From a virus (lineage: Duplodnaviria; Heunggongvirae; Uroviricota; Caudoviricetes), in IMG/VR virus record IMGVR_UViG_3300042890_002891, positions 1-64,000 of that record: a DNA stretch of 64,000 nucleotides. One strand, given 5' to 3'. How positions within the stretch are numbered: position 1 is the stretch's first letter; the number at the start of each line of letters is the position of its first letter. Position numbers and translations under genes: made by a program. This document shows positions 37,324-61,518 of this stretch, in pieces. Below the pieces are notes generated by a model. It did no database searches and was not told the origin of the DNA. It worked only from the letters and a program-made list of their open reading frames with translations.

Positions 37324-37629
37324 ATGGATACTGATGCTTTAATTGCCCACGCACGAGTACGTTTTGATCATGTGGCTGCTCGCCGCGTACTAAAAGAAAA
37401 ATACCAAGCCCGTATGTTGTTTGCCTACCGCGGCGGAATGTGGCGTGCTGATCCTGAACTGCTGGTACTGTTGGCCACTGTGCCTCCAGGCGATGCAGTG
37501 GTGTTGGACCTGTATGAAACTCCGGTACAGGTCAATCCTGAACAACTACGAGGCCTGGCCATGCAGTTATGGCAAGAGCAAATGAATGCATGGCTAGTGG
37601 AACTTGATCAACAACGTCAACTACGATGA
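37324..37629 (+). CDS. Hypothetical protein
   Basis: First ORF after the promoter; ATGA overlap with the next gene. Confidence 0.7.
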   Translation: MDTDALIAHARVRFDHVAARRVLKEKYQARMLFAYRGGMWRADPELLVLLATVPPGDAVVLDLYETPVQVNPEQLRGLAMQLWQEQMNAWLVELDQQRQLR

Positions 37630-38438
37630 CCTGCGGTGCGTTAATATTTGCCTTCAACAACGAAGCCACCGACTATGTGAGCATGGCTGCCTGGAGTGCA
37701 GGTCGTATTCGCCACCATCTGGGCATACCAGTTGCTGTTGTGACCAACAGCCAAGATCCTGCACTAAACAAAATGTTTGATCAAGTTATCTACGCAGAGC
37801 CTGAATCAGGTGGCACAAGATTTTTTGAAGACTACAACTCAACCGTGACCTGGCACAATGCCGGTAGAGCAGATGCATACTCTCTCACTCCTTGGGAACA
37901 GACGCTAGTACTGGATGCAGACTATGTGGTGGCCAGTTCGCAGTTGAGTCTGGTGCTGGACAGTAATCGTGATTTCATGTGTCACGATCGTGCTTACGAT
38001 ATTGCAAAATCTCGATTGCTGGATGAACTAAACACATTTGGCGAACATCGCCTGCCCATGAGCTGGGCCACTGTGATGATGTTTCGCAAGAGCAACACTG
38101 CTGCCTACATATTTGACTGTATGCACATGGTGCGACACAACTGGGACCATTACAGAGCCTTGTACAAGATTCAGAAAAGTACCTATCGCAATGACTTTGC
38201 ACTGAGCATTGCTCTAGGAATCATCAGCGGCGGCACCTGGAGAGTCGACAGTATTCCCTGGAGTTTGGCCAGTATCCTGCCCGAGTATGACCTGGAACAA
38301 ATTGCCACTACTGACGAAACATTCAAAATTACGCATCGTGCGTCTGATGGAGGAAATTTGTACTGTGCCCTAAATGGCGTGGACTTTCATGCCATGGGCA
38401 AAAAACATCTAGGAGACATCATTGAAGCCCATAGCTGA
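37626..38438 (+). CDS. GT-A fold nucleotide-diphospho-sugar transferase (GT8-like)
   Basis: TPWEQTLVLDADY DxD motif, YRNDF, late FHAMGK. Confidence 0.65.
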   Translation: MTCGALIFAFNNEATDYVSMAAWSAGRIRHHLGIPVAVVTNSQDPALNKMFDQVIYAEPESGGTRFFEDYNSTVTWHNAGRADAYSLTPWEQTLVLDADYVVASSQLSLVLDSNRDFMCHDRAYDIAKSRLLDELNTFGEHRLPMSWATVMMFRKSNTAAYIFDCMHMVRHNWDHYRALYKIQKSTYRNDFALSIALGIISGGTWRVDSIPWSLASILPEYDLEQIATTDETFKITHRASDGGNLYCALNGVDFHAMGKKHLGDIIEAHS

Positions 38439-39204
38439 ACAAGGCTACTTGATTGTGGCCTGTAATTCCACCACAGTTGACTATGTTGACTGTGCCAGAT
38501 CTCTGGTCCGAACATTAAAAATGCACAATCCTGCTGCTGAAGTTTGCCTGGTCACAGATTCGGAATGCACCGATCCTGTGTTTGATTATGTGCGCTATAT
38601 TACCAATGCGAATCCTGCTAATCCATACGAGAATGACTGGCAGGCGTTTTATCAAACTCCGTTTCGTGAAACCATCAAGCTGGAAGCAGACATGTGGATT
38701 GTGAGCAACATTGACCACTGGTGGGATATGTTTAGACACAGAGATCTTGTGATATCAACTGGCTGCAGAACCTGGAGAGATCAAGTCAGCCACAATAGAC
38801 ATTATCGAAAAATATTTGATGACAACAACTTGCCCGATGTATACAACGCTATCACCTACTGGCGTCTTAGTCAAACAGCACAGGAGTTTTTTGTACTGGT
38901 ACGCAACATATTTGCTCATTGGGCAGAGTATCGTAAACTGTTGAAGTTTCCTGAAGATGTTCCATCCACTGATGTGGTGTATGCTATGGCAGCACAAATT
39001 ATAGGTGCTGAATCAGTCACTTTGCCATTTGCAACATATCCCAAAATGGTGCATATGAAACAGCATCATGCAGGAACACGAACCGAAGACTGGACACAGG
39101 AGTTGGTATGGGAATACCGCAACAAGCAACTGCGGATACAAACACACGCACAATGGGGAGCTTTTCATTATCATGTCAAACAAGCAGCCACTCAGTGTAG
39201 ATGA
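38422..39204 (+). CDS. GT-A fold transferase, paralog of the previous gene
   Basis: TPFRETIKLEADM (ExD variant), STDVVY, FHYHVK. Confidence 0.6.
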   Translation: MKPIAEQGYLIVACNSTTVDYVDCARSLVRTLKMHNPAAEVCLVTDSECTDPVFDYVRYITNANPANPYENDWQAFYQTPFRETIKLEADMWIVSNIDHWWDMFRHRDLVISTGCRTWRDQVSHNRHYRKIFDDNNLPDVYNAITYWRLSQTAQEFFVLVRNIFAHWAEYRKLLKFPEDVPSTDVVYAMAAQIIGAESVTLPFATYPKMVHMKQHHAGTRTEDWTQELVWEYRNKQLRIQTHAQWGAFHYHVKQAATQCR

Positions 39205-39526
39205 TTTCTGGGCAGCACTCAGTGCCATGCCTGCACCTGAGCCGGTGTTCTACAGACTATACTACAACAGCGATGGTTATCCTGTGGCGTATTCAATGGA
39301 GGATATTCCGGGACTGTATGTTGAAATAGATCAGACTACCTATAATGCAAACAACAAGCACATTAGAGTTGTTGACGGAAAGATTGTGACCCAACGGTTT
39401 AATAGAATAACTAAACTTGTGCCTGCTGACTCTGGATCCCCTTGTCATCCTGACAATGTCGCTGTAATCGTCAGTGAGCACAAGCCCCACCAAAAATGGA
39501 CCAAGAAAACTTATGAACCAAATTGA
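39173..39526 (+). CDS. Hypothetical protein
   Basis: Probable start ATG 39173 (MSNKQPL); fills the gap between transferase genes. Confidence 0.6.
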   Translation: MSNKQPLSVDDFWAALSAMPAPEPVFYRLYYNSDGYPVAYSMEDIPGLYVEIDQTTYNANNKHIRVVDGKIVTQRFNRITKLVPADSGSPCHPDNVAVIVSEHKPHQKWTKKTYEPN

Positions 39527-40439
39527 CATTGCAGATCTTGATTGTGTATACTTGACCTATGATGAACCCAAGAAAGAAGAAAACTGGGTCAAGATCAGAA
39601 ACATGATACCATGGGCTCGTCGTGTAGACGGAGTTCGAGGGTCTGACGCAGCACACAAGGCCGCAGCAGACGCCAGTACTACTGAGCGTTTTGTTCTGAT
39701 TGACGGAGATAACATTCCTGATGCTAAATTTTTCAATCAAACATTGATATTTCCCACTGCTGATTATGAATCTGCTGTGTTTCGTTGGAAAGCAAGAAAC
39801 GCCATCAATGGACTCATGTACGGCAATGGTGGACTGAGCTCATGGACGCGGCAATATGTGCAAAACATGAACACACATGAAAACACAGACGGTCGTACAG
39901 AAACACAAGTAGAGTTTTGTTTTGATCCGTTATACTGGCCCATGCACGACTGTTACTCAACCACCTATCCCAATGGATCAGCATTTCATGCCTGGCGTGC
40001 AGGATTCCGTGAAGGTGTAAAGATGTGCCTGAATCGTGGAGCAAGACCCACACTAGCAGAGTTCAAGGATCAAGTGCATCAACGAAATCTAGATCATCTC
40101 ACAATATGGCACAACATAGGTGCAGATGTAGAATACGGTTACTGGGCCATGGCCGGCGCTAGACAAGGCACCTACATGACCATGCTCACAAACTGGGATT
40201 ACCTGCAGGTGCAGAACTTTGATGCACTAGCCGAACTATGGAACACTGTGGAATCAGAACAGCCTGAGATTCTGGCCAATAGAATTGCTGACGAATTGCA
40301 CACACAGTTGGATCTGCCCATGCACATGCTCACTGTAGAAGCCAGTGAATTCTTTAAACGACACTATAGATCAAACTGGCACAATCAAGGCGTAATGGTT
40401 CGTGAGATTGATGTAATACGACAACAAGAAGGATGGTAA
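39513..40439 (+). CDS. GT-A fold glycosyltransferase-like protein
   Basis: TYDEP..RVDGVRGSDAAHKAAA..FVLIDGDN (DxD), NGLMYGNGG, WRAGFREG; start taken at ATG 39513. Confidence 0.7.
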   Translation: MNQIDIADLDCVYLTYDEPKKEENWVKIRNMIPWARRVDGVRGSDAAHKAAADASTTERFVLIDGDNIPDAKFFNQTLIFPTADYESAVFRWKARNAINGLMYGNGGLSSWTRQYVQNMNTHENTDGRTETQVEFCFDPLYWPMHDCYSTTYPNGSAFHAWRAGFREGVKMCLNRGARPTLAEFKDQVHQRNLDHLTIWHNIGADVEYGYWAMAGARQGTYMTMLTNWDYLQVQNFDALAELWNTVESEQPEILANRIADELHTQLDLPMHMLTVEASEFFKRHYRSNWHNQGVMVREIDVIRQQEGW

Positions 40440-40440: not shown

Positions 40441-40965
40441 ATGCTCAAACCAATTTATTTAAATTATGATTTTTCAAAGATTTTATCTGCTGACTATTCG
40501 CAACATGAGGGTAGTTGCATCAGTCATTTGGCCACAGAGTTAGCAGATGATTATGCGCCATACGGCGGTCTTCCAGGATCATACTGTTATGAAAACACAA
40601 AGATACATCAGTTATGGTGGACCAATGATGACATTGACTTTGATGAGATTGGGCATAAATTAAACATGCAAGTGATTACTGTTAGTAGTATATGCCAGCC
40701 TCCGGGATGTATAGTTCCTTTGCATCGAGACACTTTTTATCAAATCAATCAACGTTGTCCAGAACGAACAGAACTCAAAGTCCGAGCCAACATCTATCTT
40801 GAAGATTGGAAACTAGGGCAGTTTATACAATATGACAATGACATCAGTGCTAAATGGAAAGTAGGTGAAGGATTTATGTGGGATTCTACTCATTTACATC
40901 TTTCAGCCAATGCAGGCATGCAAAACAAATATACCTTACAAGTATCAGGATTTTTAAAACAATAA
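40441..40965 (+). CDS. 2OG-Fe(II) oxygenase/cupin-like hydroxylase
   Basis: PLHRD (HxD), distal H in HLSANAG, KYTLQVSG. Confidence 0.65.
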   Translation: MLKPIYLNYDFSKILSADYSQHEGSCISHLATELADDYAPYGGLPGSYCYENTKIHQLWWTNDDIDFDEIGHKLNMQVITVSSICQPPGCIVPLHRDTFYQINQRCPERTELKVRANIYLEDWKLGQFIQYDNDISAKWKVGEGFMWDSTHLHLSANAGMQNKYTLQVSGFLKQ

Positions 40966-40966: not shown

Positions 40967-41896
40967 ATGTTCACTATAATTTGCAACAATGACAAAATTT
41001 GGAATCAACTCGAGTTGATCGACTATCTTGTCAAGAACCAAGACAAAACAGTTGAGTTAGATATAAATCCTGAAGCAACATGCCTGACAAATCTTGGTGT
41101 ATATCAATTATTAGATCTTTTTAGTTTTAAACAGGTGAACATTTACACTTGGAATCCTTTAGAATACCACCCTAAATATCAAATCAAATTGGTAGATACA
41201 AATTATGTATTAAAAAAAACAATACAAATACCCACTCAACTGCAAACATGGGATCAAACAAAAATTTTCTTTTGTTTTTATGGTCGCCCTACTGCTGGTA
41301 GATTGGGGTTAGCAGGACATTTGTTCAAGAAGTACAACCAACAAAGTTTAATTCATTTTTCAACAGACACCGACGACTATTATAAATTTGAATTTGATAA
41401 GCTATTGTCGTATGATACAGCTAGTGTACCCGACGCCAGTGCTCTGCTACAACATCTTCCAATTCTACAATCAAGCAACAATCAATATTCACCGCTTGAA
41501 TATGATTTCCGTGACAAACTTACAGAGCTTTATCAAAGTATTTTAATAGATGTAGTAGGAGAAACTTTTGTTCAAGGAACAACATTTTTTCCTTCAGAAA
41601 AAACTACCCGGCCCATGCTACTGAAAAAACCTTTTGTAACATTTGCATCACAAGATCATATGGCGTATCTTCGGCAGATGGGATTCCAAACATTCCACGG
41701 ATTTTGGGACGAAGATTATGATGGATTTGAAGGGAGAGACCGGTTGATTCGGCTATATCAAGTTATTGGTGATGTAGCAAACCGGCCAATGAATGAATTA
41801 GTTGACATGTATAAAGAAATGCAACCAATCCTGGACCATAATTACAATTTACTAATGTCTCAAAGTTACAACAAAACTATAACAAAAATAATATGA
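40967..41896 (+). CDS. GT10-like putative glycosyltransferase ('ET..TEK' family, copy 1)
   Basis: VVGET..FPSEKT.RP..KPF..LRQMGFQTF..DEDYD. Confidence 0.5.
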   Translation: MFTIICNNDKIWNQLELIDYLVKNQDKTVELDINPEATCLTNLGVYQLLDLFSFKQVNIYTWNPLEYHPKYQIKLVDTNYVLKKTIQIPTQLQTWDQTKIFFCFYGRPTAGRLGLAGHLFKKYNQQSLIHFSTDTDDYYKFEFDKLLSYDTASVPDASALLQHLPILQSSNNQYSPLEYDFRDKLTELYQSILIDVVGETFVQGTTFFPSEKTTRPMLLKKPFVTFASQDHMAYLRQMGFQTFHGFWDEDYDGFEGRDRLIRLYQVIGDVANRPMNELVDMYKEMQPILDHNYNLLMSQSYNKTITKII

Positions 41897-43266
41897 GCAA
41901 AAGCGATTTTTTATCTTCAGCCGAAAAAATGCATGCCGAGCTTGGTCCTGCCTTGTGCTTGGCCAAATGGAAACAGGTCAGTTTTCATCTACCCACAGGG
42001 CTCAATAACTCATGCTATCATCCGCCCTTGCACCGAATACCCATCGAAGACATTGGACGTAATCCTTCCGCATTGCATAACACTCCGCACAAGAAAGAAC
42101 AGCGCAAACTCATGCTGGCAGGTGTCAAACCTGCGGAGTGTAGCTATTGCTGGAACATGGAAGCACAAAACAAGCTGAGTGATAGACACTACAGATCAGG
42201 CGAGCCCTGGGCCGCAGTAGATTTTGACAAAATAAAAAGCTCAACAGGAGATGAAGATGTTATTCCCAGTTATGTGGAAGTTAATTTTAACAATGTTTGC
42301 AACCTTGCATGCAGCTATTGCAGCCCGCAGTTCTCAAGCACTTGGCAGCAAGAAACTGATCGGCACGGTGCATATCCTACTCTGGTGCCTCATAACGCTC
42401 CTGAGCATTTTTCTGGTGACCGTAAGCCCATTCCAGCCCGTGATCACAATCCTTATGTAGAAGCATTTTGGGAGTGGTGGCCCACCTTGTATCCTGAGCT
42501 GGAACACTTTAGAATGACCGGCGGCGAGCCCTTGTTGGATCGCAATACCTATAGAGTATTCGACTATGTGCTGGAGAACCCTAGTCCCAAATTACACCTG
42601 AATGTTACGTCAAACTTTAGTGTAGATGAAAAGTCATGGCAAAAATATCTAGCCTATGTGAAACAACTATGTGATGGGCGCATAGAACACTTCATGCAGT
42701 ATGTGAGTCTAGATGCCTGGGGAGCTCAAGCAGAGTACATACGTCACGGTCTGGACTTTGATCTGTTGTGGGATCGAGTTGACCAGTTTCTTACTCAAGT
42801 GCCTAGCTACAACAGCCTGACATTTATTGTCACAATGAACAATCTCAGTGTGTCAAGCCTGGACCGATTGTTGGCAGGCATACTGGAACTACGTAAAAAA
42901 CACAGTACAACATATCAGCGTGTGTGGTTTGATACTCCTGTGCTGCGTGAACCTGCATGGCAGAGCCTGCAAACACTGGGAGAATCTTATGCTGCACGGC
43001 TTGACACAGTCAAAGACTACATGGCTGCACACTTGGAAACATCTGCAAATCCATTCAAAGGTTTCAAAGACTACGAAGTGGCCAGGCTAGACAGAGACAT
43101 TGCCTGGATGCGATCAGGGCAAGCTGCGGATCAAAGTTGTAGTCAAGCAGACTTTTATCGTTTTTTCAGCGAAGCAGATCGCCGTCACGGAACAAATTTT
43201 TTACAAGTGTTTCCTGAAATGCGAGCCTGGTGGGCCGAATGTGAGTACCATGCTAGACAAAACTAA
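41893..43266 (+). CDS. Radical SAM protein with N-terminal Cys/His auxiliary domain
   Basis: CLAKW..SCYHPPLH..CSYCW, then CNLACSYC, TGGEP. Confidence 0.88.
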   Translation: MSKSDFLSSAEKMHAELGPALCLAKWKQVSFHLPTGLNNSCYHPPLHRIPIEDIGRNPSALHNTPHKKEQRKLMLAGVKPAECSYCWNMEAQNKLSDRHYRSGEPWAAVDFDKIKSSTGDEDVIPSYVEVNFNNVCNLACSYCSPQFSSTWQQETDRHGAYPTLVPHNAPEHFSGDRKPIPARDHNPYVEAFWEWWPTLYPELEHFRMTGGEPLLDRNTYRVFDYVLENPSPKLHLNVTSNFSVDEKSWQKYLAYVKQLCDGRIEHFMQYVSLDAWGAQAEYIRHGLDFDLLWDRVDQFLTQVPSYNSLTFIVTMNNLSVSSLDRLLAGILELRKKHSTTYQRVWFDTPVLREPAWQSLQTLGESYAARLDTVKDYMAAHLETSANPFKGFKDYEVARLDRDIAWMRSGQAADQSCSQADFYRFFSEADRRHGTNFLQVFPEMRAWWAECEYHARQN

Positions 43267-44395
43267 TCTAGTAGTAGATACATTCAGTGTTGTATACGAT
43301 TTACTAAAACCCTTTGCTAGTCAGGAGTTCTGGGAGTTTGCTGATCATGTGCCAGTCACGGGTGCAACCTATGTTATAGGACGCAAACAACTGGTAGAAA
43401 ATAGACCCAGAATCAGAGCCATGTGCGAGTCTAACCAATACTGCATGGTGTTTGACGGTGCTGCTGAAGGATCCTGGACACTGATAGAACAAATACGCAT
43501 GTTGGGCATAGAAGATCTTGTGTTGAGCAAGCAACTGCTGATACTCAGTGGCGGTGTCATGCCCGCTAAGTATCCTGCACTAACACATGATCATTTCTTT
43601 AATGTGATACTGGGCTATGACGAAAATCTACAGCAGATGGAACGCATGCCCGAAATTTACAATACCACATCCAAGCCTTATGATTTTTTATTCCTAAATG
43701 GGCGAGCAAGGCCACACAGAAAATACCTGTGGGAACGATTGAATCAACTGGGCCTGCTGGATCGGGCAATATGGTCCATGCTCGATGGAAGGCCCACGCT
43801 CAAAGGCACAGAGCTAACGCTCATGTCCGGCAGTGTCGATTTAATGACCACAGTGACACCTATACGTCAACTGGATTCCCAATACGAAGTTGCACGATAC
43901 CAAAACAATTCAGTGGAGATAACCGAACCCAAACGGCAATTTATCAAGCAAGACATGTTTCACAACACCTGGGGTGAAATTTATCTACAAACCGAACCCT
44001 ATGCTGATACCTACTTTAGTCTGGTCACAGAAACCATATGCGAACACGGCAACAGTTTTCGAACTGAAAAGATTGCCAAACCGCTGGCACAAGGACATCC
44101 GTGGATCGTGGCAAGCAATGCTGGATTTTATCGTGATCTTCGCAACTTGGGATTTCAAACATTCGGGCATGTGATAGACGAGTCGTTTGATTTGATTGAC
44201 AACACCCAAGATAGACTCAATCGAATTGTCGAAATTGTACAGGATCTTTGCAGTCAAGACCTTGCAAAATTTCTCAATGAGTGTTACACTGTATGTAAAT
44301 ACAATCAACAACATCTCGGTGAGTATCGAGAGCAACTACGCCGCGACTTTCCCCAGCGGTTGTTTGATTTTTTACAAGAGCATACCCTTCAGTGA
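43250..44395 (+). CDS. GT10-like putative glycosyltransferase (copy 2)
   Basis: FLNGRARPHR; LVTET..FRTEKIAKP..GFQTF..DESFD; start taken at ATG 43250. Confidence 0.5.
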   Translation: MLDKTNLVVDTFSVVYDLLKPFASQEFWEFADHVPVTGATYVIGRKQLVENRPRIRAMCESNQYCMVFDGAAEGSWTLIEQIRMLGIEDLVLSKQLLILSGGVMPAKYPALTHDHFFNVILGYDENLQQMERMPEIYNTTSKPYDFLFLNGRARPHRKYLWERLNQLGLLDRAIWSMLDGRPTLKGTELTLMSGSVDLMTTVTPIRQLDSQYEVARYQNNSVEITEPKRQFIKQDMFHNTWGEIYLQTEPYADTYFSLVTETICEHGNSFRTEKIAKPLAQGHPWIVASNAGFYRDLRNLGFQTFGHVIDESFDLIDNTQDRLNRIVEIVQDLCSQDLAKFLNECYTVCKYNQQHLGEYREQLRRDFPQRLFDFLQEHTLQ

Positions 44396-50314: not shown

Positions 50315-50971
50315 ATGAAATACAATCGAGTTTTTGCGTTTGGAGACAGTTTTACCTATGGGCATGAATTAAGTGATTGTCCTACTAATAACTGGCCGAC
50401 TCCGAGCAATCTTTCATACGGGGGATTAGTAGCTAATAAGTTATCTGCAGAATATCATTGCCATGCCATAGGAAGCTATGCCAACAACGCAATTTCTAGA
50501 AGAATAATACAAGCACTTCCAATATTAACACAGCATGACATGGTATTAGTTATGTGGACTGCCACTGTGAGACACGAGTTACTTTTACAGGATGAAGGGT
50601 GGATAAGTCTTTTGCCAACTAGCACCATGCCAATGTCAATAGAATATTTTAAACACATTGATACAACCCCACAGTATCATATTGACAAGACTTTAAAAGA
50701 AATATACATTTCTCAACAACTTTTAACCTCAGCAGATATACCACATATCTTTATGAGTTCAATGACCGATTTGTCTCAAGGAATACAAAATCAAGAAAAT
50801 TTACTGTCAACAAAACTTGATCTTGACAAATGGATATTTCTTGACAACGGCCTTGGGTTTGTCGAATGGTCAAAAAATATATTAAATCTTCAATTTAGTG
50901 GGCATCCTCGAGATGCCGCCCATGAAGCATTAGCAAAAAAAATACTAGCCAAAATACATGACCAAACCTGA
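50315..50971 (+). CDS. SGNH/GDSL-like acyl hydrolase/transferase
   Basis: FGDSFTYG block I; C-terminal GHP..AH. Confidence 0.65.
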   Translation: MKYNRVFAFGDSFTYGHELSDCPTNNWPTPSNLSYGGLVANKLSAEYHCHAIGSYANNAISRRIIQALPILTQHDMVLVMWTATVRHELLLQDEGWISLLPTSTMPMSIEYFKHIDTTPQYHIDKTLKEIYISQQLLTSADIPHIFMSSMTDLSQGIQNQENLLSTKLDLDKWIFLDNGLGFVEWSKNILNLQFSGHPRDAAHEALAKKILAKIHDQT

Positions 50972-53277: not shown

Positions 53278-53375
53278 CCTGGCTAAAGAACTTATGGGCA
53301 AGAATTACCCTGGAATATCGTTACCGAAAGAAATTAAAAGAATTGAGAAAGCGTGATCCTTTTATCTATAAATGA
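53274..53375 (+). CDS. 33-aa basic microprotein (MTWLKNLWARITLEYRYRKKLKELRKRDPFIYK), absent from the ORF track
   Basis: ATGA overlaps with both the upstream stop and the carbamoyltransferase start. Confidence 0.65.
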   Translation: MTWLKNLWARITLEYRYRKKLKELRKRDPFIYK

Positions 53376-54853
53376 ATATACTAGGAGTCTCGGCAGGGTT
53401 TCATGACGCTGCTGCCACAGTGCTGAGTTCACAAGGTGACGTGTTGTTTGCTGGACACAGCGAACGCTACAGCAAACGCAAGAATGATGCCGACTTCTGT
53501 CCAGGGCTCTTGGATGATATCTTGCCGTATGCACCTGCGCATGTGGCCTATTATGAACGTCCCTGGGCCAAGCAACTGCGTCAACTTTATGCTGGACAAG
53601 GCATTGACTGGAACAAACTCACAGTAGGGCAAATACTCAAGTCTCAGCTGGGCGACAGTATTGAACCAGAGCGAGTATCTAGTCACAGTCATCACCTGAG
53701 CCATGCGGCTTCAGGATTTCAAACCAGCCCGTTTGATCGTGCCACAGTCGTGGTAATAGATGCAGTGGGCGAATGGGAAACAGTTACTATATGGGGCGCA
53801 GAATATGATTCAACGGGTCGTGCAATTTATAAAAAACTGTGGCAACAAAATTACCCACATTCCATCGGACTCTTTTATAGTGCAGTCACTGGCCGCGTTG
53901 GCCTACACCCACTAGACGAAGAATACATACTAATGGGCATGGCTGCTTATGGCAATCCGGGCATCAGCGAACTCATGAGAATGAATCTGGTGCAGGATGA
54001 ATGGGAAATTAGATTCAAAGAAAATCTACACACAGGACTAGATCCCAAGTATCTGGAACATTTTAGTGACGCAGATCTGGCAGCAGGGGCACAGGATCTA
54101 GCGGAAGACTTGATTCTAAACGTCATGATGCGAGCTCGAAACTTCAAGTTCAGCAGCAATCTAGTTTATCAAGGCGGGGTTGCACTCAATTGCAGTGCCA
54201 ACAGACGAATAGGAAATTATTTTGAAAACATTTGGATTATGCCTTGCCCTGGTGATGCTGGCTCTAGCCTGGGAGCCGCTGCGTTGGCTTATGGTCAGCG
54301 GGTTAATTGGACTAGTGCTTTTCTTGGCCATGATATCCCCGGTGCTTATCCTGTTAATCTTCTACTTGATAATCTTGTTACCACTGGCATTGTTGGCGTG
54401 GCCTCAGGTCGTGCAGAGTTTGGACCTAGAGCCCTTGGACATAGAAGCCTGCTTGCAGACCCCAGAGGACCAGACATAAAAGATCGTGTGAATGAAATCA
54501 AACGACGTCAACAGTTCCGACCATTTGCTCCTGTGATACTGGAAGAACTGGCTGATCAGTACTTTATCATGCCTCGTGGTTGGGAACACAGTCCTTACAT
54601 GCAGTCAGTGAGTCATTGTCGCAGTCCTGAACTGTATCCTGCTATTGTGCATCATGATGGCACCAGCAGAGTACAAACTGTATCAAAAGATTCGCCATCG
54701 GGCATTAGAGAACTCTTGGAAAAATGGTATGTCATGACCGGCTGTCCCATGCTGCTGAACACCAGCCTGAACATACGCGGTGAACCCATGGTCAACGATC
54801 GCGCGGACGCAGATCGATTCGAAGCCTTGTACGGTGTTACTGTGTGTAGCTAA
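53372..54853 (+). CDS. O-carbamoyltransferase (CmcH/NodU/TobZ family)
   Basis: FHDAAA, ERYSKRKND, HHLSHAA, GGVALNC, GDAG, EFGPRALGHRS, RPFAP, LNTSLN..GEP. Confidence 0.95.
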   Translation: MNILGVSAGFHDAAATVLSSQGDVLFAGHSERYSKRKNDADFCPGLLDDILPYAPAHVAYYERPWAKQLRQLYAGQGIDWNKLTVGQILKSQLGDSIEPERVSSHSHHLSHAASGFQTSPFDRATVVVIDAVGEWETVTIWGAEYDSTGRAIYKKLWQQNYPHSIGLFYSAVTGRVGLHPLDEEYILMGMAAYGNPGISELMRMNLVQDEWEIRFKENLHTGLDPKYLEHFSDADLAAGAQDLAEDLILNVMMRARNFKFSSNLVYQGGVALNCSANRRIGNYFENIWIMPCPGDAGSSLGAAALAYGQRVNWTSAFLGHDIPGAYPVNLLLDNLVTTGIVGVASGRAEFGPRALGHRSLLADPRGPDIKDRVNEIKRRQQFRPFAPVILEELADQYFIMPRGWEHSPYMQSVSHCRSPELYPAIVHHDGTSRVQTVSKDSPSGIRELLEKWYVMTGCPMLLNTSLNIRGEPMVNDRADADRFEALYGVTVCS

Positions 54854-56009
54854 GACGGTCAATCAAGCGAGCTAGACTGGGCCTGGAACGCTGTATAAAC
54901 AATTGTTGGTTGTGTATCAAATCGGGCATGCATTTCAAATACCATTGATGCAGGTCCTGCTGTTTGATCTGCTGCAAAGTTTGTTTTACAGCAAACCAAC
55001 GTTGAGTATTATCTACTATGCTATCGTAACTGTTGTCAATCACTGAATCAAATGTACGATATCCTGCAGAACGCAAGGCCGCCAAACTGCCCACGGGTCC
55101 TGCTATCACAAATGGTTGTCCAAACTTCATGCACTTGTAGGTTTTTTCAGTGATAAAAGCACCACCGCTTTGATCCACATCAAACAAGGTTTCGATTGAG
55201 ATGTGGCAATAGCTGTTAAGATAAAGATCAGTATTGATCATTCTGTGATCGTTGTGTGCATCTGAATCAGGACCGTCACAGTAGTATGGACCATTTGCCA
55301 GGAACAACTGTAGTTTTTTGACCCAGTCCGAGTCAGACTTTATGCTAATAGGGTTGTTGTCCTCCAGATCATCTATAGTGCAATCAGTATTGTAACTCCA
55401 CAGGCTGTTGTTTAGAATACCATCGGCATGCAGATCACTCATGATGCTGCCGCGCCACCATTTGTGTATGCGATTCAGTGCAGTAAAGTCATACTGTCTA
55501 GGAAGATCAGTTACAGGAGTGTAACCTTGACGACGATTAACATAACTCAAAAAGTATTCGTGATCTGGAAAGTAATGGCATCTAGCCACAGAATTGGCCA
55601 CAGTATTGGCACTCACAAACAAATAACAATCCACAGGCAGCTGATGTTGCACACACAAACTATCCAGACGTTCTCGTATGCGATCAGGATTGTCCCCTTC
55701 GTGATAGTAGAACAATACTTTTATTTCTTTCAGCTGCAATTTAGCAATAGTGTTGAGTTTCATTAGTCCAAAATAATCACAATCAAAATCGTGCCAGCCC
55801 AGCGCAACCGGATACCAACTACCTGCGGGTGCTTGATCCACTGTGCTGCTGGTCCAAACGGCCCCTGCATGTTTGAGATATACTAGCAGTCTGAATGCAA
55901 TTGTTCTGGGCCAGGTGTTGTCAAAGTCGTCTGGCCCTAGACCTAGATCAGCAAGATTAGGATATCCTAATTCAGGATCACTCATGGTGTCGTAGCAAAA
56001 ATTTATCAT
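54837..56009 (-). CDS. GT10-like putative glycosyltransferase (copy 4)
   Basis: ALNRIHKWWR; ISIET..FITEKTYK..QPF..GYRTF..DNSYD. Confidence 0.5.
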   Translation of the reverse strand: MINFCYDTMSDPELGYPNLADLGLGPDDFDNTWPRTIAFRLLVYLKHAGAVWTSSTVDQAPAGSWYPVALGWHDFDCDYFGLMKLNTIAKLQLKEIKVLFYYHEGDNPDRIRERLDSLCVQHQLPVDCYLFVSANTVANSVARCHYFPDHEYFLSYVNRRQGYTPVTDLPRQYDFTALNRIHKWWRGSIMSDLHADGILNNSLWSYNTDCTIDDLEDNNPISIKSDSDWVKKLQLFLANGPYYCDGPDSDAHNDHRMINTDLYLNSYCHISIETLFDVDQSGGAFITEKTYKCMKFGQPFVIAGPVGSLAALRSAGYRTFDSVIDNSYDSIVDNTQRWFAVKQTLQQIKQQDLHQWYLKCMPDLIHNQQLFIQRSRPSLARLIDRLSYTQ

Positions 56010-57154
56010 GTATCTATCTGTGCCAGCATGTTGTTTAGTTCAGTCCACAATACTGCTTCAAAACCACCCTTGTAGAAATGATTCCAGTTGTGTTCTATTA
56101 CTTCTTGAGCTGCATCAAACAACTGTTGCTTGGCTTTGGTAGACAGCACGTCTAGACTCTTTAGCAGTTCAGCAATGCGAGTAATACGCAAATCGTCCTC
56201 GGCCAAATCATAACTCTCGTCCCAGATGTTGCCAAAGGTTCGGAAACCGTAACTGCGCAGGTATTCGAGACTACCACGTGTGCCCACAACAACAAATGGC
56301 ATACCTAGAGCAATGGGCTTGAATGTCTTTTCAGTCAAATGATGTCTACGTCCTGTAGCCACAGTTTCAGTCACAAGATATAGTAGGCTTTCGGCTGCCT
56401 CATCAAACAAGCTGAGCCAACAGCTATGCATGGGATGGTCGGTTTCATTCACAAAGTTGATGGGCAAGGTCTGTGCCGCAAATACAGATTCAATGTCAGG
56501 ATATTTTGCTGCCAAGGGCTTGATGGCATGGTGTATGCTGATGTTTTCTGCAGGGCATGTGTCGGGACAACTGATATGATTGTGCGTCATATCATGCTTG
56601 AATATGTGATACAGTATTTCTAATCTATGTTGCCGTTCGCCAGCCACAATACGATTAGGGGCAATAAATGTTCGGGTTATAGTGCGTTCTTGTATTGGCT
56701 GTATCAAAAAGGTCTTGTCATATCCGCGATACCAGTCCAGTGCTGCCCAGCCATGAAAGAAATAGTAAGCAGGTTTCCACTTGAAATGAGCACACACATA
56801 TTCAACATTTTCGCTATCATGTTCACTGGTCAACAGGTATCCAGGAATTTCACCATTTGCACGTGGTATCTTGCTCCAGGCGCCAGTGACTCTATTAAGA
56901 TATATGTTGGAGTGTATATCTGCATTGAGAGTTATAACTTTCTCAAAAGTCTCCATGTGTATGCTCAAATGAATAGGCTCTTGGTCATAAATGAATATAT
57001 AATTGTGTTCGTGAGCAGTATCACTACCGTAACTAACTACACTGTCTGGATCACTGCGCCCAAACGGATCGCAATGAAACACTCTGTAACCTGGACGATT
57101 CCGTTGAAACCAAGGCCAAAAAGTGTTGTTGTAAATTTCATCTATTCTGATCAT
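56006..57154 (-). CDS. GT10-like putative glycosyltransferase (copy 5)
   Basis: PNR..HR; LVTET..LTEKTFKP..MPF..GFRTF..DESYD; start taken at ATG 57154 (MIRIDEIY). Confidence 0.5.
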   Translation of the reverse strand: MIRIDEIYNNTFWPWFQRNRPGYRVFHCDPFGRSDPDSVVSYGSDTAHEHNYIFIYDQEPIHLSIHMETFEKVITLNADIHSNIYLNRVTGAWSKIPRANGEIPGYLLTSEHDSENVEYVCAHFKWKPAYYFFHGWAALDWYRGYDKTFLIQPIQERTITRTFIAPNRIVAGERQHRLEILYHIFKHDMTHNHISCPDTCPAENISIHHAIKPLAAKYPDIESVFAAQTLPINFVNETDHPMHSCWLSLFDEAAESLLYLVTETVATGRRHHLTEKTFKPIALGMPFVVVGTRGSLEYLRSYGFRTFGNIWDESYDLAEDDLRITRIAELLKSLDVLSTKAKQQLFDAAQEVIEHNWNHFYKGGFEAVLWTELNNMLAQIDT

Positions 57155-57156
57155 TA

Positions 57157-58968
57157 ATGTTCGACGTATTTTATATTGGAAATAAACCCAACCTGTTTGT
57201 GCATGAGTGTGAGGTTGAATCAATTGAACAAGCACAGCAACAGAGTCGCACTGGATATTTCTGGATGGTATCATACTTAGTGGATTACACAGGGTTCAAT
57301 TTCCTTTGGAAACCAGCACCTTGGCAAGGTCATCAGTGTCATGCTTGGCCCAGCCAATGGCAAAAAGATTCAGGTACATATCTAGCGCCCAAGTCAGGCT
57401 ATTTTGAAATCAACTACAGAAAAGACCAAGTGCTGACGCGGTTACAGGACCGGAGCAACTGGGTCATTCCTGACAATTTTGATGCAGATAGTTTTGACTT
57501 CTCCTGGCATCCTGACACAACAGAACCTGATTATGTATATCAATTTGGCACACAGCATCAACGCACAGGCGGTCCAAAATATTGTGTGGCAGGTGCCATA
57601 GATCTGAAGTTTTGCGATCAAGTCAGAGGAAGTGTCAAGTCTGGCACAACACCCATAATTGAAATAAATCACCTGGACGGCAATGCTGGACAAGTTCCAG
57701 GAGTTGTATCCACTGTTCGTTACTTTGACAACTACAAAGATACACTTGCTAGAATTGCCAACACTTGTGAACACGAGTATGTGTGGATTGTCAGTAGTAT
57801 CTGCGACTACAGTAATTTTGACTTCTCCTGGCATCCTGAGCTATGGCAAAACACCATGCTGCATGTGTTTGCTAGCGACGAGCAAAAGTTTGGCGACACA
57901 TTCTATATGCATGTGCCCAGCTTCCAAAAGCGTATAGATCAATTTGCATTGCTTGATTGGTATGATCTAAACTTTGTTAGTACTGGCGTTCCACGTAGAC
58001 CCATGCCCATAGTACAGCACGATCAAGACAGTCATGCAGATGTGATTCGGACTCGAAACTTTGCCGGTCCACTAGCAGTATTCACACAGTCTGCCTACAT
58101 GAGCGCAAACTTGGTCACTGTGTCATTGTGGAGAGAACAAACCAAGACTATAGTTCCGTTGAATCCCGGTGCATCTAGTGTGATTGTGCCTCGAACAGCC
58201 GTGCCTTATATCAAGACACAGCTATACGATTACCCTTATGTGGACAAGACGCATCGTGTGCTACTGGATCCGCGCCAGGACATTGTGTTCATCTCCAACG
58301 GTGAAACCAACGCTGAAGATAATTGGACAATTCTAGAAAGCAGAATCATAGGACTAGAGACAAATAAACTACACAGAGTCGATCGTGTGAATGGTCGTGC
58401 AGCAGCATATCATGCAGCAGCCCAGGCCAGTACTACGCCGTGGTTCTTTGCTGTGTTTGGTAAGTTAGCAATTGATCTTGACTTTGACTGGGCATGGCAA
58501 CCTGATCGCATGCAACAAGCCAAACACTATATCTTTCATGCTCGGAATCCGGTCAATGGCCTAATATACGGACATCAGGCCATGATCGCATACAACAAAC
58601 AATTGGTACTAGACAATCCAGGAGTGGGACTAGACTTCACGCTGGACTCACCACATGAAGTAGTGCCCATCTTGAGTGGAGTGGCATACTACGATACTAG
58701 TGCCTGGAGTACATGGCGCACAGCATTCAGAGAAGTTCTAAAACTTCAAGCCAGCTTGCCAGATGTGGAAAATGAATACCGTCTAAACAAATGGCTTGAT
58801 ATCAACAGTGACGAAACAGATCCGCAGTGGAGCCGACTTGGTGCAGAAGATGCTGTAGAATATTACAATCAAGTCAACGGTGACTTTGCAGCTCTTAAGA
58901 AAAGCTACGAGTGGGAGTGGCTTGCAAGTTATGCGTTTGTCAAACGCAGCCTATTACCGAGTCAATGA
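57157..58968 (+). CDS. Multi-module GT-A-like protein
   Basis: Four F(D/N)(F/W)xWxP modules; C-terminal module parallels 39513-40439 (RVDRVNGRAAAYHAAA, NPVNGLIYG, WRTAFRE). Confidence 0.6.
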   Translation: MFDVFYIGNKPNLFVHECEVESIEQAQQQSRTGYFWMVSYLVDYTGFNFLWKPAPWQGHQCHAWPSQWQKDSGTYLAPKSGYFEINYRKDQVLTRLQDRSNWVIPDNFDADSFDFSWHPDTTEPDYVYQFGTQHQRTGGPKYCVAGAIDLKFCDQVRGSVKSGTTPIIEINHLDGNAGQVPGVVSTVRYFDNYKDTLARIANTCEHEYVWIVSSICDYSNFDFSWHPELWQNTMLHVFASDEQKFGDTFYMHVPSFQKRIDQFALLDWYDLNFVSTGVPRRPMPIVQHDQDSHADVIRTRNFAGPLAVFTQSAYMSANLVTVSLWREQTKTIVPLNPGASSVIVPRTAVPYIKTQLYDYPYVDKTHRVLLDPRQDIVFISNGETNAEDNWTILESRIIGLETNKLHRVDRVNGRAAAYHAAAQASTTPWFFAVFGKLAIDLDFDWAWQPDRMQQAKHYIFHARNPVNGLIYGHQAMIAYNKQLVLDNPGVGLDFTLDSPHEVVPILSGVAYYDTSAWSTWRTAFREVLKLQASLPDVENEYRLNKWLDINSDETDPQWSRLGAEDAVEYYNQVNGDFAALKKSYEWEWLASYAFVKRSLLPSQ

Positions 58969-60010
58969 TGTATTCTGCTTCTGAGTCAGTGAGCTCAGGA
59001 TAGATTGGCAGACTCAAACAGCGTCGGCTTAGAGAATAGCAGGCACCCAATATATCAGGAGCAGCACAATCTTGATATGGATTCAAGGCCTGGATAGGAT
59101 CTAGATAATGTACTTTGGTTTCAATGCCAAGATCAGTTAGCGCCTGATGTAGCTGATCTCTATGATCAACATCAATTACAAATTTGTGATAGCAATGCTC
59201 TCGATAGTTTGTGGCGTCAATCAGTGAACGAATTCCGGCTTGACTCAGTTGCTCCATCCAGTGTCGCGCAATCTCTCCCCTGCGGGTTTGCCATGCATCT
59301 ATGTAACGAGTCTTGACCATCATCTGCGCACAGTCAACTTCACTCATTCGCGAGTTTGTGCCAGTCTGCGCACTGCCACTAATGCGATATGATCGATTTC
59401 TAATCCAGTTTCTAGCAAAGAGATCCAACAGGATGCTATCAGTAATTACTGCTCCGCCGTTGCCGTAGTTGTTGAAGTTCTTGGTAGGATCAAAACTGAT
59501 AGCAGCCGCAAACCCCCTGCGTTCACAGTTGCGACTCAACCAATGTTGTGCAGCATCTTCAACCCAGGTTCTAGAGTATCCTTCAGACGCATAACTGGAA
59601 TCCAGGGCGTGGCCATACAAGCCAACAGGGCAAATCACAGTGGCGTCTTTGTGAACAGTTGCCAAATCCATTAGTCCATATGCATTGGTATCTGCCACGG
59701 TCACAGTCCAACCTGCTCGTCGCCACGCATTGGCAGTGGCCACATAGGTCATTGCAGGAACTGATACTATCGCATCATCTAGATCATGGAGATAACTAGC
59801 AATGATTTCCAGGGCCTGTGTGCCTGAATGACATGTGATTGCATACAGGCTGTGATTCTTTTTGGCCAGCCAGGATTCAAATTGTTCGGTATATTCACCG
59901 CTCATGAGAGATCCTGAACGCAACACAGTGTCTGTTGCATCCAGAATTTCTGTGCGTAGATTGTTATACTGTTTTGGTATTCCAGTAAACGGAATTTTTA
60001 AGCCATTCAT
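58940..60010 (-). CDS. DegT/DnrJ/EryC1/StrS PLP-dependent sugar aminotransferase
   Basis: SGTQAL, EDAAQ, SFDPTKN (PLP lysine), GTNSRM, LSLPIYP. Confidence 0.9.
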   Translation of the reverse strand: MNGLKIPFTGIPKQYNNLRTEILDATDTVLRSGSLMSGEYTEQFESWLAKKNHSLYAITCHSGTQALEIIASYLHDLDDAIVSVPAMTYVATANAWRRAGWTVTVADTNAYGLMDLATVHKDATVICPVGLYGHALDSSYASEGYSRTWVEDAAQHWLSRNCERRGFAAAISFDPTKNFNNYGNGGAVITDSILLDLFARNWIRNRSYRISGSAQTGTNSRMSEVDCAQMMVKTRYIDAWQTRRGEIARHWMEQLSQAGIRSLIDATNYREHCYHKFVIDVDHRDQLHQALTDLGIETKVHYLDPIQALNPYQDCAAPDILGACYSLSRRCLSLPIYPELTDSEAEYIIDSVIGCV

Positions 60011-60932
60011 AATACTTTTCAAAGCCCTCTTCTACATCTACTTGGGGATCAAATCCAAAGTCTCTACGTGCAGCATCAATGTTCAGCGCACCGCGACTGG
60101 GAAAGTCTGTGTCCTTGTCTCGGACCACAATAGAGCCCGAGCCTGCAAGTTTGACTGCCAAGTTAGCAGCGTCCCATAATGTTCTACTGTGACTCTTGGT
60201 GATGTTATAGGTTTTGTTATCAGTGTTGTGGCTCAATGCAGCAGCCACAATACCATCAGCAGCATCTTCCACATAGGTAAAGTCCAGGGTTTCGTTTTTG
60301 CCATTCACATTCAATACACCGCCGCGCATGGCAGCCAGCATGAATTTTGCAATGACTCTATCTTCCACATCCAAGGGCCCGTACACAGCACTGGGACGAA
60401 TGATAGTGTGTGCAATATTGTCTCTGCGTGTGTAGTCTCGTACCAGCCATTCACCTGCCAGTTTCATAATGCCATACTGCCCTTGCGGAGCACATACTGC
60501 ATCTTCTGTTACATCATCCACAAAGTCTCCGTACACCATGGAACTGCTGATATACACAAATTTGCGTGTATCGTAGTTCCGGCTGGCTTCCAACAAGTTT
60601 AGCAAGCCTTCGCTCATCACACGACTGCCCTTTGCAGGGTTGGCATTGACCACTTTCTGTCGCGGAAAGCTGGCCATGTGAATCACAATCTCCGGCTGTT
60701 CAATCTTGAACACCTTGTTCACAGCATAGCTGTCACAAATGTCATACTTGTAGTATCTACTCAAGTTGATTTTCTTGATACGTTCTTCAACCAGATAATC
60801 TATTTCAGGCTGAGGAATAATTCCGTAGTTGGTTTGTGTGTCCATGATAGACACCACATGCCCTTGATCTTGCAGTCGTTGAACCACATTGTGCCCAATA
60901 AGACCAAGTCCGCCTGTTACTAGTATATTCAT
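59964..60932 (-). CDS. NAD-dependent NDP-sugar epimerase/dehydratase
   Basis: MNILVTGGLGLIG, SSSMVYG, YGIMK, DFTYVED; start at ATG 60932. Confidence 0.92.
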   Translation of the reverse strand: MNILVTGGLGLIGHNVVQRLQDQGHVVSIMDTQTNYGIIPQPEIDYLVEERIKKINLSRYYKYDICDSYAVNKVFKIEQPEIVIHMASFPRQKVVNANPAKGSRVMSEGLLNLLEASRNYDTRKFVYISSSMVYGDFVDDVTEDAVCAPQGQYGIMKLAGEWLVRDYTRRDNIAHTIIRPSAVYGPLDVEDRVIAKFMLAAMRGGVLNVNGKNETLDFTYVEDAADGIVAAALSHNTDNKTYNITKSHSRTLWDAANLAVKLAGSGSIVVRDKDTDFPSRGALNIDAARRDFGFDPQVDVEEGFEKYYEWLKNSVYWNTKTV

Positions 60933-61201
60933 TTTCCTGTCCATTTCAATTGAAACATCATGTAAACTTTTTCGTCCATCAACCCATGCATACTGCTGGC
61001 ATAATCCCAATATCGACCAGGTTGTACTATACCCGGTGCTCCATATGTTTTTTGTAACCAACTCTCTTGATCTCGAGAGAGTTTTTCAAAAGTTCGATAC
61101 ACCATTATTGGTACAAATTTAGTGCCATCCCACATCTGCTTTCGAACAGGTGGACGAGATGTGGCCACAACATCTAGATATTCGATGTATTCACTGTTCA
61201 T
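60929..61201 (-). CDS. Hypothetical protein
   Basis: ATGA-type overlaps on both sides; start at ATG 61201. Confidence 0.6.
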   Translation of the reverse strand: MNSEYIEYLDVVATSRPPVRKQMWDGTKFVPIMVYRTFEKLSRDQESWLQKTYGAPGIVQPGRYWDYASSMHGLMDEKVYMMFQLKWTGK

Positions 61202-61518
61202 GTGTACTTGAGTTTGAAAAACGTTTGATCGGGCTCGCTGAGTCTGGCTATGATACTGAATCGATATGAATAGTTGCTGATATCCAAGTGTTGAGTCCAC
61301 CAAGGAGTTTCTACAGCATGAGCTATTACCCAGGCACCTGCTTCGCTGTGTTCCCAGTCTGTCAAAGGACCAGCTGCGTGTATCGCAGGATCTTCAATTT
61401 CAGACACACAAAAAGAATGCACAACCAGGTCCGAAAACGCCACAGATTGATCATTGATAAGTCTAAACTCTCGAGGCTTCCAGTGTGATCGGTCAGTTGG
61501 TGCAGCAGTTATGGCCAT
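61198..61518 (-). CDS. Hypothetical protein
   Basis: 106-aa ORF directly after the putative promoter. Confidence 0.65.
   Translation of the reverse strand: MAITAAPTDRSHWKPREFRLINDQSVAFSDLVVHSFCVSEIEDPAIHAAGPLTDWEHSEAGAWVIAHAVETPWWTQHLDISNYSYRFSIIARLSEPDQTFFKLKYT

Follow-up and report, generated by a model that had tools for sequence, protein, structure and literature searches.

A candidate glycan-assembly and radical-tailoring operon conserved among uncultured jumbo phages

Here, we analyse 64,000 nucleotides of viral DNA (positions 1 to 64,000 of IMG/VR record IMGVR_UViG_3300042890_002891, Caudoviricetes; hereafter, the window), and within it an island at 37324-61518 that encodes 25 soluble proteins. 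The conserved part of this island is a plus-strand unit of 19 genes (37324-54853) with its own conserved terminator and promoter, in which transferase-like genes are interleaved with genes for five radical S-adenosylmethionine (radical SAM; rSAM1 to rSAM5) enzymes and which ends in an O-carbamoyltransferase gene. The explanation we favour, at a probability of about 0.6, is that these genes specify a cytoplasmic pathway that builds a short glycan, edits it by radical chemistry and carbamoylates it, on an acceptor made by the phage. The source record (261,673 bp, with a CheckV completeness of ~75%) comes from an uncultured jumbo phage of ~350 kb.

A conserved operon with exchangeable inserts

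The open reading frames (ORFs), gene order and strands of an earlier reading of the sequence, the original prediction, are reproduced by our ORF map, and the alternation of glycosyltransferase (GT), radical SAM and SGNH genes that it described (GT-rSAM-GT-rSAM-rSAM-SGNH-rSAM-GT-SGNH-rSAM) is exact. What does not survive is the idea of a single 24-kb unit. Instead, we find a conserved 17.5-kb operon, swappable AT-rich inserts and a variable arm. Both the right arm (54837-61518) and a set of four AT-rich genes can be swapped, and the DegT and epimerase genes for sugar precursors, previously listed as part of the one island, lie in this variable, oppositely oriented arm and outside the conserved core. 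The inventory of genes stands as listed, but it had overlooked a 33-aa ORF, the terminator and promoter at 37271-37318, and further paralogues elsewhere in the genome.

With one radical SAM protein as query, >597 IMG/VR contigs were retrieved at 68-81% identity, and synteny and locus counts refer to 80 related loci among them. The block recurs in hundreds of related viral contigs, and hence the co-occurrence on which the original prediction had staked its case does hold. Gene order across the 80 loci is fixed. Fibre genes are followed by a 101-aa protein, two GT8-like genes, a small protein, the family D gene and a variable slot; then come rSAM1, a GT-B gene, rSAM2, rSAM3, rSAM4 and a second variable slot; and the series closes with rSAM5, a cyclophilin-like protein, the carbamoyltransferase and the variable arm. 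Median identity across loci is 66-73% for the radical SAM genes, the best kept of the enzyme genes, and 31-43% for GT-B genes, the most divergent. Slot genes have a GC content of 0.34-0.375, versus 0.42-0.50 for the core. The AT-rich slot elements are the genes starting at 40441, 40967, 47438, 49381 and 50315, together with a 172-aa N-terminal extension of rSAM3; lying as they do between core genes, they fit a picture of swappable cassettes on a fixed backbone. In the variable arm, the DegT and epimerase genes, the gene at 57157 and two minus-strand GT-B genes are found in only some relatives, the DegT gene in a minority of the loci.

The operon is preceded by a 70-nt gap, in which the 3′ arm of a terminator hairpin doubles as the -35 box of a sigma-70-like promoter. 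A stable hairpin is kept in 58 of 68 related loci, with compensatory changes in the stem, and a -10-like box lies 3-9 nt upstream of the ATG in 59 of the 68. This conserved pairing of hairpin and -10 box indicates that 37324-54853 is a separate unit, rather than a simple extension of the fibre operon. Judging by the spacing of box and start codon, the operon transcript is probably leaderless or nearly so. No copy of the T4-type late promoter TATAAATA is present in the window.

Pfam scans and hydropathy agree with the reported lack of a flippase, Wzy polymerase, ABC exporter or membrane protein. In Pfam scans of the island we found no flippase, Wzy or ABC family and no initiating transferase, and no island protein has a 19-residue Kyte-Doolittle window at or above 1.6, except for a marginal 1.61 in the 101-aa protein. 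For 15 of the island proteins, neither Pfam nor PHROGs returned anything significant. We rejected a captured bacterial polysaccharide locus (O-antigen or capsule) as an explanation, since export and polymerase machinery is missing and the block is conserved within a phage clade.

Enzymes of the operon

All five radical SAM genes named in the original prediction carry CxxxCxxC and have Pfam and NCBIfam support. Their products match NCBIfam model NF033640 (N_Twi_rSAM, twitch domain-containing radical SAM protein; cut-off 170 bits) over its full length, with scores of about 287-395 bits. As in other NF033640 members, an auxiliary Cys domain stands in front of the CxxxCxxC core; the Pfam SPASM match lies N-terminal of the Radical_SAM match. 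In the paralogue alignment, C9, C27, C74, C77, C123/C127/C130 and GGEP are invariant or nearly so, which includes four auxiliary Cys, and two of the five paralogues form an SC(Y/H)HPP subtype. The 172-aa extension of rSAM3 (GC 0.36) has no Pfam match, and rSAM4 has >7,500 relatives at 90% clustering. Where the island departs from the rest of the family is in number: five distinct orthologous lineages sit in one operon, with three copies elsewhere in the genome (6249-7406 on the minus strand, and 199256-200509, plus strand, and 258923-260095, minus strand, of the record), for a total of eight in 262 kb.

By sequence, the family profile finds one solved structure, BtrN (PDB 4m7t), a 2-deoxy-scyllo-inosamine dehydrogenase and the founding twitch radical SAM enzyme. 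The original prediction had named BtrN as well, and the auxiliary domain of the island enzymes does match its twitch domain (E = 1.5e-4). The resemblance is partial. BtrN acts on a carbohydrate-like substrate and its twitch domain aligns with the island N-terminal domain, but in BtrN that domain is C-terminal and the match covers only ~70 residues. Moreover, BtrN acts on a free aminocyclitol, whereas the island has no cyclitol-forming enzyme.

Three groups of transferase-like proteins accompany these enzymes. The five members of family B, of which the operon encodes one core copy and one or two accessory ones, share a C-terminal E-T...T-E-K..K-P...G-x-P-F...L-R..G-F-x-T-F motif. We modelled the core copy, 43250-44395, from a 38-row alignment, with a predicted local distance difference test (pLDDT) score of 93. 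In a Foldseek search with this model every listed match is a GT-B enzyme, headed by the GT10 fucosyltransferases 7yro and 2nzw (E ~2e-3). The best VIA scores are Z 12.9 to T4 beta-glucosyltransferase (root-mean-square deviation 4.2, 277 aligned residues) and Z 12.8 to Helicobacter pylori FucT, with TarM, GtfC and GT4 enzymes tied with them; the top matches fall at Z 11-13 over 254-289 residues. On the strength of this model, the GT-B fold of family B can be regarded as established. The tie across GT-B families means that donor and acceptor cannot be read from the fold. Like the GT10 alpha-1,3-fucosyltransferases (H. pylori FucT 2nzw/2nzx, mango FucT13 7yro, human FUT9), family B combines a GT-B fold with a C-terminal E...TEK...P...G motif, but identity to these enzymes is 9-16%. 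The Pfam GT10 model did not match four of the five family B proteins at E values up to 10, nor any of the five at E values up to 0.01. Because a match is missing even at E = 10, GT10 membership of family B is not established. The five proteins originally called GT10-like are thus one family with a GT-B fold close to GT10, without membership by hidden Markov model (HMM).

A true GT fold can be assigned to at least this one family, by way of its model; the other proposed transferases had no significant match. Of the four proteins that had been described as GT-A-like, the pair of 260-270 aa (family C) resembles GT8 by language-model features: in the ESM Atlas, similarity to the GT8, Nucleotid_trans and Mannosyl_trans3 clusters is 0.95-0.97. 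The motifs of the pair (G-Y-L-I-x-A...T-D, L-E-A-D-M-V-V and F-H-A..K) fit a GT8-type reading. No significant Pfam or PDB sequence match was found for the pair, 48 orthologues included; the best Pfam signal is PF11051 at E = 0.016 in 1 of the 48. The other two, 39513 and 57157, have no significant GT2 match. They belong to family D, for which no Pfam model and no PDB sequence match was found and for which hhalign gave a probability of 0.2% against a three-sequence GT2 alignment and nothing significant against family C. The DGDN motif of family D is present in 39513 and missing from 57157. The family comprises 1,603 clusters at 50% identity in a representative library, and its members are often the C-terminus of proteins of 400-2,200 aa with repeated FDFSWHPD-type modules. 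Among 42 multidomain relatives, two are fused to GT2 and one to GT1/28. The module itself, a ~100-aa repeat of the form W...FDFSWHPD...H.F, precedes the family D domain in hundreds of such proteins and has no Pfam family.

Gene contexts in bacteria tie both the radical SAM family and family D to glycosyltransferases independently of the phage island. A Bacteroidales contig carries a tandem of three N_Twi radical SAM genes and, after it, GT2, GT2, GT4 and GT4 genes, and in Bdellovibrionales chromosomes a family D gene has a GT2 gene on one side and an N_Twi radical SAM gene on the other.

The last gene of the operon encodes a carbamoyltransferase of the CmcH/NodU/TobZ type. This call, like those of the DegT aminotransferase and the epimerase of the short-chain dehydrogenase/reductase (SDR) type, had been made before and passes the Pfam cut-offs. 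Carbam_trans_N and Carbam_trans_C score 127 and 165 bits, above their gathering scores, and the profile matches the solved enzymes NovN (9s2t), GdmN (7vzq) and TobZ (3ven) over their full length (E 4e-68 to 4e-43). The island enzyme differs from NodU in its score (136 bits, against an equivalog cut-off of 1000 bits) and in being shorter, at 493 aa. It differs from the known enzymes of the family in a further respect: its gene is almost always preceded by a conserved micro-ORF, undescribed for them.

This micro-ORF encodes the basic 33-aa peptide MTWLKNLWARITLEYRYRKKLKELRKRDPFIYK. It is present in 69 of the 69 related loci that have the carbamoyltransferase gene and is missing in the single locus (L055) that lacks this gene. 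Positions 13-33 of the peptide are near-invariant, and synonymous sites vary, with six Leu codons at position 21 and four Pro codons at position 29. Near-invariant residues together with free synonymous change indicate that the micro-ORF is translated and under strong purifying selection. An unannotated ORF of Ralstonia phage RsoM2USA likewise ends in ...IRKQDPFIYK. With the carbamoyltransferase of that phage we retrieved 80 more distant viral loci, 39-44 of which have a basic micro-ORF ending in DPFIYK or a close variant. In 27 of 39 it abuts the carbamoyltransferase gene, and the N-termini are unrelated. In 19 of the distant loci, both the peptide and the carbamoyltransferase are encoded and radical SAM genes are absent within 7 kb; conversely, a peptide is undetectable in many radical SAM arrays, which implies that the peptide travels with the carbamoyltransferase and not with the radical SAM genes. 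A complex prediction for the carbamoyltransferase and the peptide scored 0.00, which speaks neither for nor against binding. A literature search returned no paper on the DPFIYK motif.

A proposed pathway and its alternatives

We propose that host nucleotide sugars serve as donors, that the GT8-like and family D enzymes would start the chain, and that the GT-B enzymes would extend it. Each radical SAM paralogue may abstract a hydrogen atom at a defined sugar position, leading, by analogy with BtrN, to oxidation, epimerisation, deoxygenation or a C-C link. The SGNH-like enzymes would add or remove acyl groups, and the carbamoyltransferase would cap a hydroxyl group. Swappable inserts could generate glycan variants between phages, and the variable arm supplies further GT-B genes and amino-sugar enzymes. 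We infer the order of these steps and the acceptor, as well as, by analogy, the sugar-directed nature of the radical chemistry. Most likely the acceptor is a phage-made protein, be it the Thr-rich fibre-like protein whose gene lies just upstream or a different protein of the virion. We favour a virion protein because the operon directly follows the fibre genes, the last of which encodes a protein with 21.5% Thr. The original prediction of a cytoplasmic assembly line for a decorated oligosaccharide is thereby upheld in part: the locus is soluble, phage-borne and rich in transferase and tailoring genes, its block is conserved, and its bacterial relatives have GT2 and GT4 neighbours, but half of the GT-A, SGNH and oxygenase calls are tentative.

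Several observations weigh against this scheme. Because a terminator and a separate sigma-70-like promoter precede the operon, it is not simply co-expressed with the fibre genes, which weakens the argument for a virion protein. A nucleotidyltransferase is not encoded in the 262 kb of the record. Family D, the GT8-like pair, the SGNH-like pair and the cupin-like protein have no significant family matches, and the most conserved element of the island is a peptide gene rather than a transferase gene. Vibrio phage K566 and a Bacteriovoracaceae contig have radical SAM arrays of the same family with no GT genes that could be recognised. Our literature search returned no characterised member and no reaction for NF033640, and for this reason sugar chemistry is an analogy. 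Product, donor and acceptor are all putative, and the probability given at the outset applies to the scheme as a whole.

The micro-ORF invites other explanations. Its peptide may be the substrate or scaffold of the pathway, with Tyr of the DPFIYK end glycosylated by the GT8-like proteins, the radical SAM enzymes introducing cross-links or other edits, carbamoylation besides, and a ribosomal peptide-glycan hybrid as the product, which we consider unlikely. In a more specific form, to which we give slightly less credence still, the 33-mer would be the acceptor itself: the Tyr of DPFIYK would be primed by a glycogenin-like GT8 enzyme, GT-B enzymes would extend the chain, five radical SAM enzymes would edit it, and a carbamoyl group would cap it. 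Such a role would explain why the micro-ORF is so strongly conserved at the residue level in spite of six Leu codons at one position, why it is lost together with the carbamoyltransferase, why it recurs in RsoM2USA beside an rSAM2 orthologue and a carbamoyltransferase, and why the same C-terminus returns in about half of the distant loci. Twitch/SPASM radical SAM enzymes are often peptide maturases, and the weak NCBIfam matches of the island enzymes to XyeB, YhhB, WgkB and PapB fit this. In addition, HypF, which is related to this carbamoyltransferase family, adds a carbamoyl group to a protein's C-terminal residue. The distant loci tell against a peptide substrate, however, both the 19 in which peptide and carbamoyltransferase have no radical SAM gene nearby and the many radical SAM arrays beside a carbamoyltransferase gene in which a peptide was not detected. 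Bacterial and Vibrio-phage arrays lack the peptide as well, and Pfam scans of the island proteins revealed no recognition element or protease of the kind associated with RiPPs (peptides made on the ribosome and modified after translation). If true, the acceptor form would represent a new class of ribosomal peptide-glycan hybrid from abundant environmental jumbo phages, and would involve carbohydrate or peptide radical chemistry that is so far undescribed. It is also conceivable, at somewhat longer odds, that the micro-ORF acts in cis as a regulatory leader, its nascent chain serving as a sensor for translation of the next gene, and that the rest of the operon is a glycan pathway. The conserved part of the peptide is the C-terminal ~20 residues, about one length of the exit tunnel, and the N-terminus can vary; the charge of the peptide is strongly basic; and in nearly all close loci, as in the 27 distant ones noted above, the micro-ORF runs up to or into the start of the next gene. 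Two loci with a gene insertion (L020, L021) have a second copy before the carbamoyltransferase gene. Yet the overlap is unremarkable, since gene pairs throughout the operon overlap by ATGA as a rule; RsoM2USA and several members of the clade have a gene between micro-ORF and carbamoyltransferase; and the micro-ORF contains no arrest motif of a known type.

Other explanations retain the glycan and move it to a different acceptor. The enzymes may remodel glycans of the host envelope, acting on lipopolysaccharide or capsule intermediates, or may make a free, aminoglycoside-like small molecule; taken together, we regard these as rather remote. Peripheral GTs that act on lipid-linked intermediates are likewise soluble, but the island lacks an initiating phosphoglycosyl transferase, flippase, polymerase, exporter or membrane protein. 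The combination of BtrN-like twitch radical SAM enzymes, DegT, a TobZ-like carbamoyltransferase and GT-B enzymes does resemble aminoglycoside clusters, but a 2-deoxy-scyllo-inosose synthase or other cyclitol-forming enzyme is missing among the island proteins, and DegT and the epimerase lie outside the conserved core. The least probable of the readings is hypermodification of DNA, in which the glycan would be attached to a modified base in the phage's own DNA, in the way that phage GT-B enzymes act on 5-hydroxymethylcytosine. Virus-encoded GTs that make diverse DNA glycans have been reported (Pyle et al. 2024, as cited in PMC12619734), T4 beta-glucosyltransferase ranks with the other tied top matches to the family B structure, and a ThyX gene lies just beyond the island. 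On the other side, a search of the 262 kb of the ~75% complete record gave no hydroxymethylase of the ThyA type (PF00303), the operon follows fibre genes rather than replication genes, and every GT-B family ties with the others in structural score. A search with PF12851 (Tet/JBP) gave no match, but its control was likewise silent, so that this negative carries no information.

Glycan assembly on a phage-made acceptor would have precedents. The capsid glycans of chlorovirus PBCV-1 and the fibril glycans of mimivirus are virus-encoded and require no host export machinery. Glycosylated capsid and tail-tube proteins of mycobacteriophages have been reported as well (Freeman et al. 2023, as cited in PMC12619734). 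Such systems use cytoplasmic, soluble, virus-encoded glycosyltransferases and amino-sugar enzymes, as the island does, with the virion target being putative here. To our knowledge, none of these systems includes radical SAM enzymes, a carbamoyltransferase or a conserved micro-peptide. PMC12619734 itself, the 'moraphage' paper, describes large aquatic Bacteroidota phages with core glycosyltransferases and makes no mention of radical SAM enzymes. Our literature search found no paper on this operon or on the function of the radical SAM family, in line with the original prediction, which was aware of no characterised pathway of this composition. Virus-encoded glycosylation is already known; the battery of radical SAM enzymes, the pair of carbamoyltransferase and peptide, and the cassette structure are new. 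No phage operon has been described in which several glycosyltransferases are coupled with a set of five to eight radical SAM enzymes. With >597 contigs in IMG/VR and >7,500 relatives of one enzyme, the product should be abundant in natural waters.

Related modules, genome setting and remaining genes

Reduced versions of the module occur in cultured phages, namely Ralstonia phage RsoM2USA and Vibrio phages K566 and K567. In RsoM2USA, the order is DUF6071, an rSAM2 orthologue (51% identity), DUF6071, the peptide, DUF6071 and a carbamoyltransferase (45% identity). Comparison of the proteins that flank this module with 52240 and with the GT8-like family C, using hhalign, gave nothing significant. 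Cultured carriers make the function of the radical SAM enzymes, the role of DPFIYK and possible glycan 'serotypes' of variable fibres directly testable. K566 (OZ196521.1, 255 kb) has four N_Twi radical SAM genes at 161548-168284, interleaved with unannotated proteins of 310-420 aa; one of the four is annotated merely as a hypothetical protein, and there is no carbamoyltransferase. In a Bacteriovoracaceae metagenome-assembled genome (MAG), contig DIVA01000093.1 has eight tandem N_Twi radical SAM genes at ~6000-18000 and obg on the same contig; no recognisable glycosyltransferase, carbamoyltransferase or DPFIYK peptide was found on it.

Coordinates of all features are collected in Table 1.

Table 1. 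Features of the island and of its upstream boundary (window coordinates).
Position	Strand	Feature	Basis and remarks
37271..37295	+	Terminator hairpin	11-bp stem then T-run; closes fibre operon
37290..37318	+	Promoter, sigma-70-like	TTTACT-17-TATAAT; ends 5 nt before ATG at 37324
37324..37629	+	101-aa protein, first operon gene	68 related loci, median 64% identity; no Pfam match
37626..38438	+	GT8-like/nucleotide-diphospho-sugar-transferase-like, copy 1, core	Paralogue of 38422; 69 loci
38422..39204	+	GT8-like/nucleotide-diphospho-sugar-transferase-like, copy 2, core	ESM Atlas features; PF11051 E = 0.016; phrog_1903
39068..39526	+	Small conserved protein	No Pfam match; true start probably ~39173
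39513..40439	+	Family D protein, core	~75% identity across clade; GT-A-like motif layout DxxFLS...IDGDN
40441..40965	+	Cupin/2-oxoglutarate (2OG)-oxygenase-like, variable AT-rich insert	PF05118 E = 0.02; GC 0.37
40967..41896	+	Family B GT-B glycosyltransferase, variable slot	Motif; GC 0.34
41893..43266	+	rSAM1, N_Twi_rSAM, SC(Y/H)HPP subtype	NF033640 308 bits; 80/80 loci
43250..44395	+	Family B GT-B glycosyltransferase, core copy	Structure model
44392..45729	+	rSAM2, N_Twi_rSAM, SC(H)HPP subtype	NF033640 293 bits; RsoM2USA orthologue 51% identical
45726..47441	+	rSAM3, N_Twi_rSAM	NF033640 395 bits over residues 173-569
47438..48208	+	DUF6071-like/SGNH-like, variable AT-rich insert	GCS...DNLHPSHIGH; PF19547 22.4 bits, below cut-off 27
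48189..49403	+	rSAM4, N_Twi_rSAM	NF033640 334 bits
49381..50295	+	Family B GT-B glycosyltransferase, variable slot	Motif; GC 0.36
50315..50971	+	SGNH-like, variable AT-rich insert	FGDSFTYG ... GHPRDAAH; PF00657 E = 0.012, 16.2 bits, cut-off 23.6
50958..52247	+	rSAM5, N_Twi_rSAM	NF033640 288 bits
52240..53277	+	Cyclophilin-like barrel with inserted helical bundle, 345 aa, conserved	Model pLDDT 81
53274..53375	+	33-aa basic micro-ORF ending ...RKRDPFIYK	Overlaps 52240 stop and carbamoyltransferase ATG
53372..54853	+	O-carbamoyltransferase, CmcH/NodU/TobZ family, last plus-strand operon gene	PF02543 and PF16861 above cut-offs
54837..56009	-	Family B GT-B glycosyltransferase, variable arm	Motif
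56006..57274	-	Family B GT-B glycosyltransferase, variable arm	Motif; true start probably ~57151
57157..58968	+	603-aa protein	Three FDFSWHPD-type repeats and C-terminal family D domain without DxD
58940..60022	-	DegT/DnrJ/EryC1 sugar aminotransferase, variable arm	PF01041 E = 1.4e-49, positions 3-359 of 360
59964..61061	-	SDR NDP-sugar epimerase/dehydratase, variable arm	PF01370 and PF16363; true start probably 60944
61198..61518	-	106-aa protein, candidate member at most	No Pfam match; no relative in fetched loci

For the small conserved protein, the start given in Table 1 is suggested by the length of its orthologues (113-141 aa). The two SGNH proteins of the original prediction do have the GDS/GCS and DxxHP motifs, but their HMM scores are below threshold; genuine DUF6071 genes are found at the flanks of the RsoM2USA module. 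The same applies to the oxygenase proposed there, a 2OG-Fe(II)-type enzyme, for which the sub-threshold PF05118 match is accompanied by no PDB sequence match. Its cupin-like gene at 40441 occurs in only 1 of the 80 loci, as well as in a relative from a Haliscomenobacter MAG (L084). PDB sequence searches found nothing useful for the 52240, 40441 and 50315 proteins. A model of the 52240 protein gave weak matches, with VIA scores of Z ~8 to many cyclophilins and a TM score of 0.35 in the Atlas, and no Foldseek match in the PDB.

Baseplate genes lie 5′ of the island, and their wedge protein is 32-35% identical to its counterparts in 350-kb jumbo myoviruses of the Rak2/GAP32/CBB type. They are followed by a single plus-strand ORF of 4,669 aa (20008-34017) and then by the fibre-like proteins (34183-37254). 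The large ORF, with 0.2% Cys and a high content of Thr, Val, Gly and Asn, presumably encodes a giant fibre or tail protein. Among cultured phages, megablast of the island found no relative, and tblastn with a family B protein found no match. Two phages of the clade are present as contigs NZ_JBBAKG010000001.1 (183 kb) and NZ_JBBAKG010000003.1 (148 kb) in a MAG labelled Haliscomenobacter sp.; protein identity to the window is 88-97% for one of them and ~70% for the other. These contigs may be a faint hint of the host (Bacteroidota, Saprospiraceae) or a binning artefact.

Just past the island are the genes for the ThyX thymidylate synthase (61542-62210) and a VWA-like DUF2201 protein (63517-63984), both on the minus strand, like the genes for DegT and the epimerase. 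Outside the window, the record at ~198,000-220,300 resembles a second sugar-handling region. It has three genes of the family B GT-B type (202221-204216 and 218966-220258), one N_Twi radical SAM gene, a GT2 gene (~211.6-212.3 kb) and a cupin-like paralogue (217226-217747). A further family B gene lies at 123321-124475 of the record, and a second GT2 match at ~104.8-105.1 kb.

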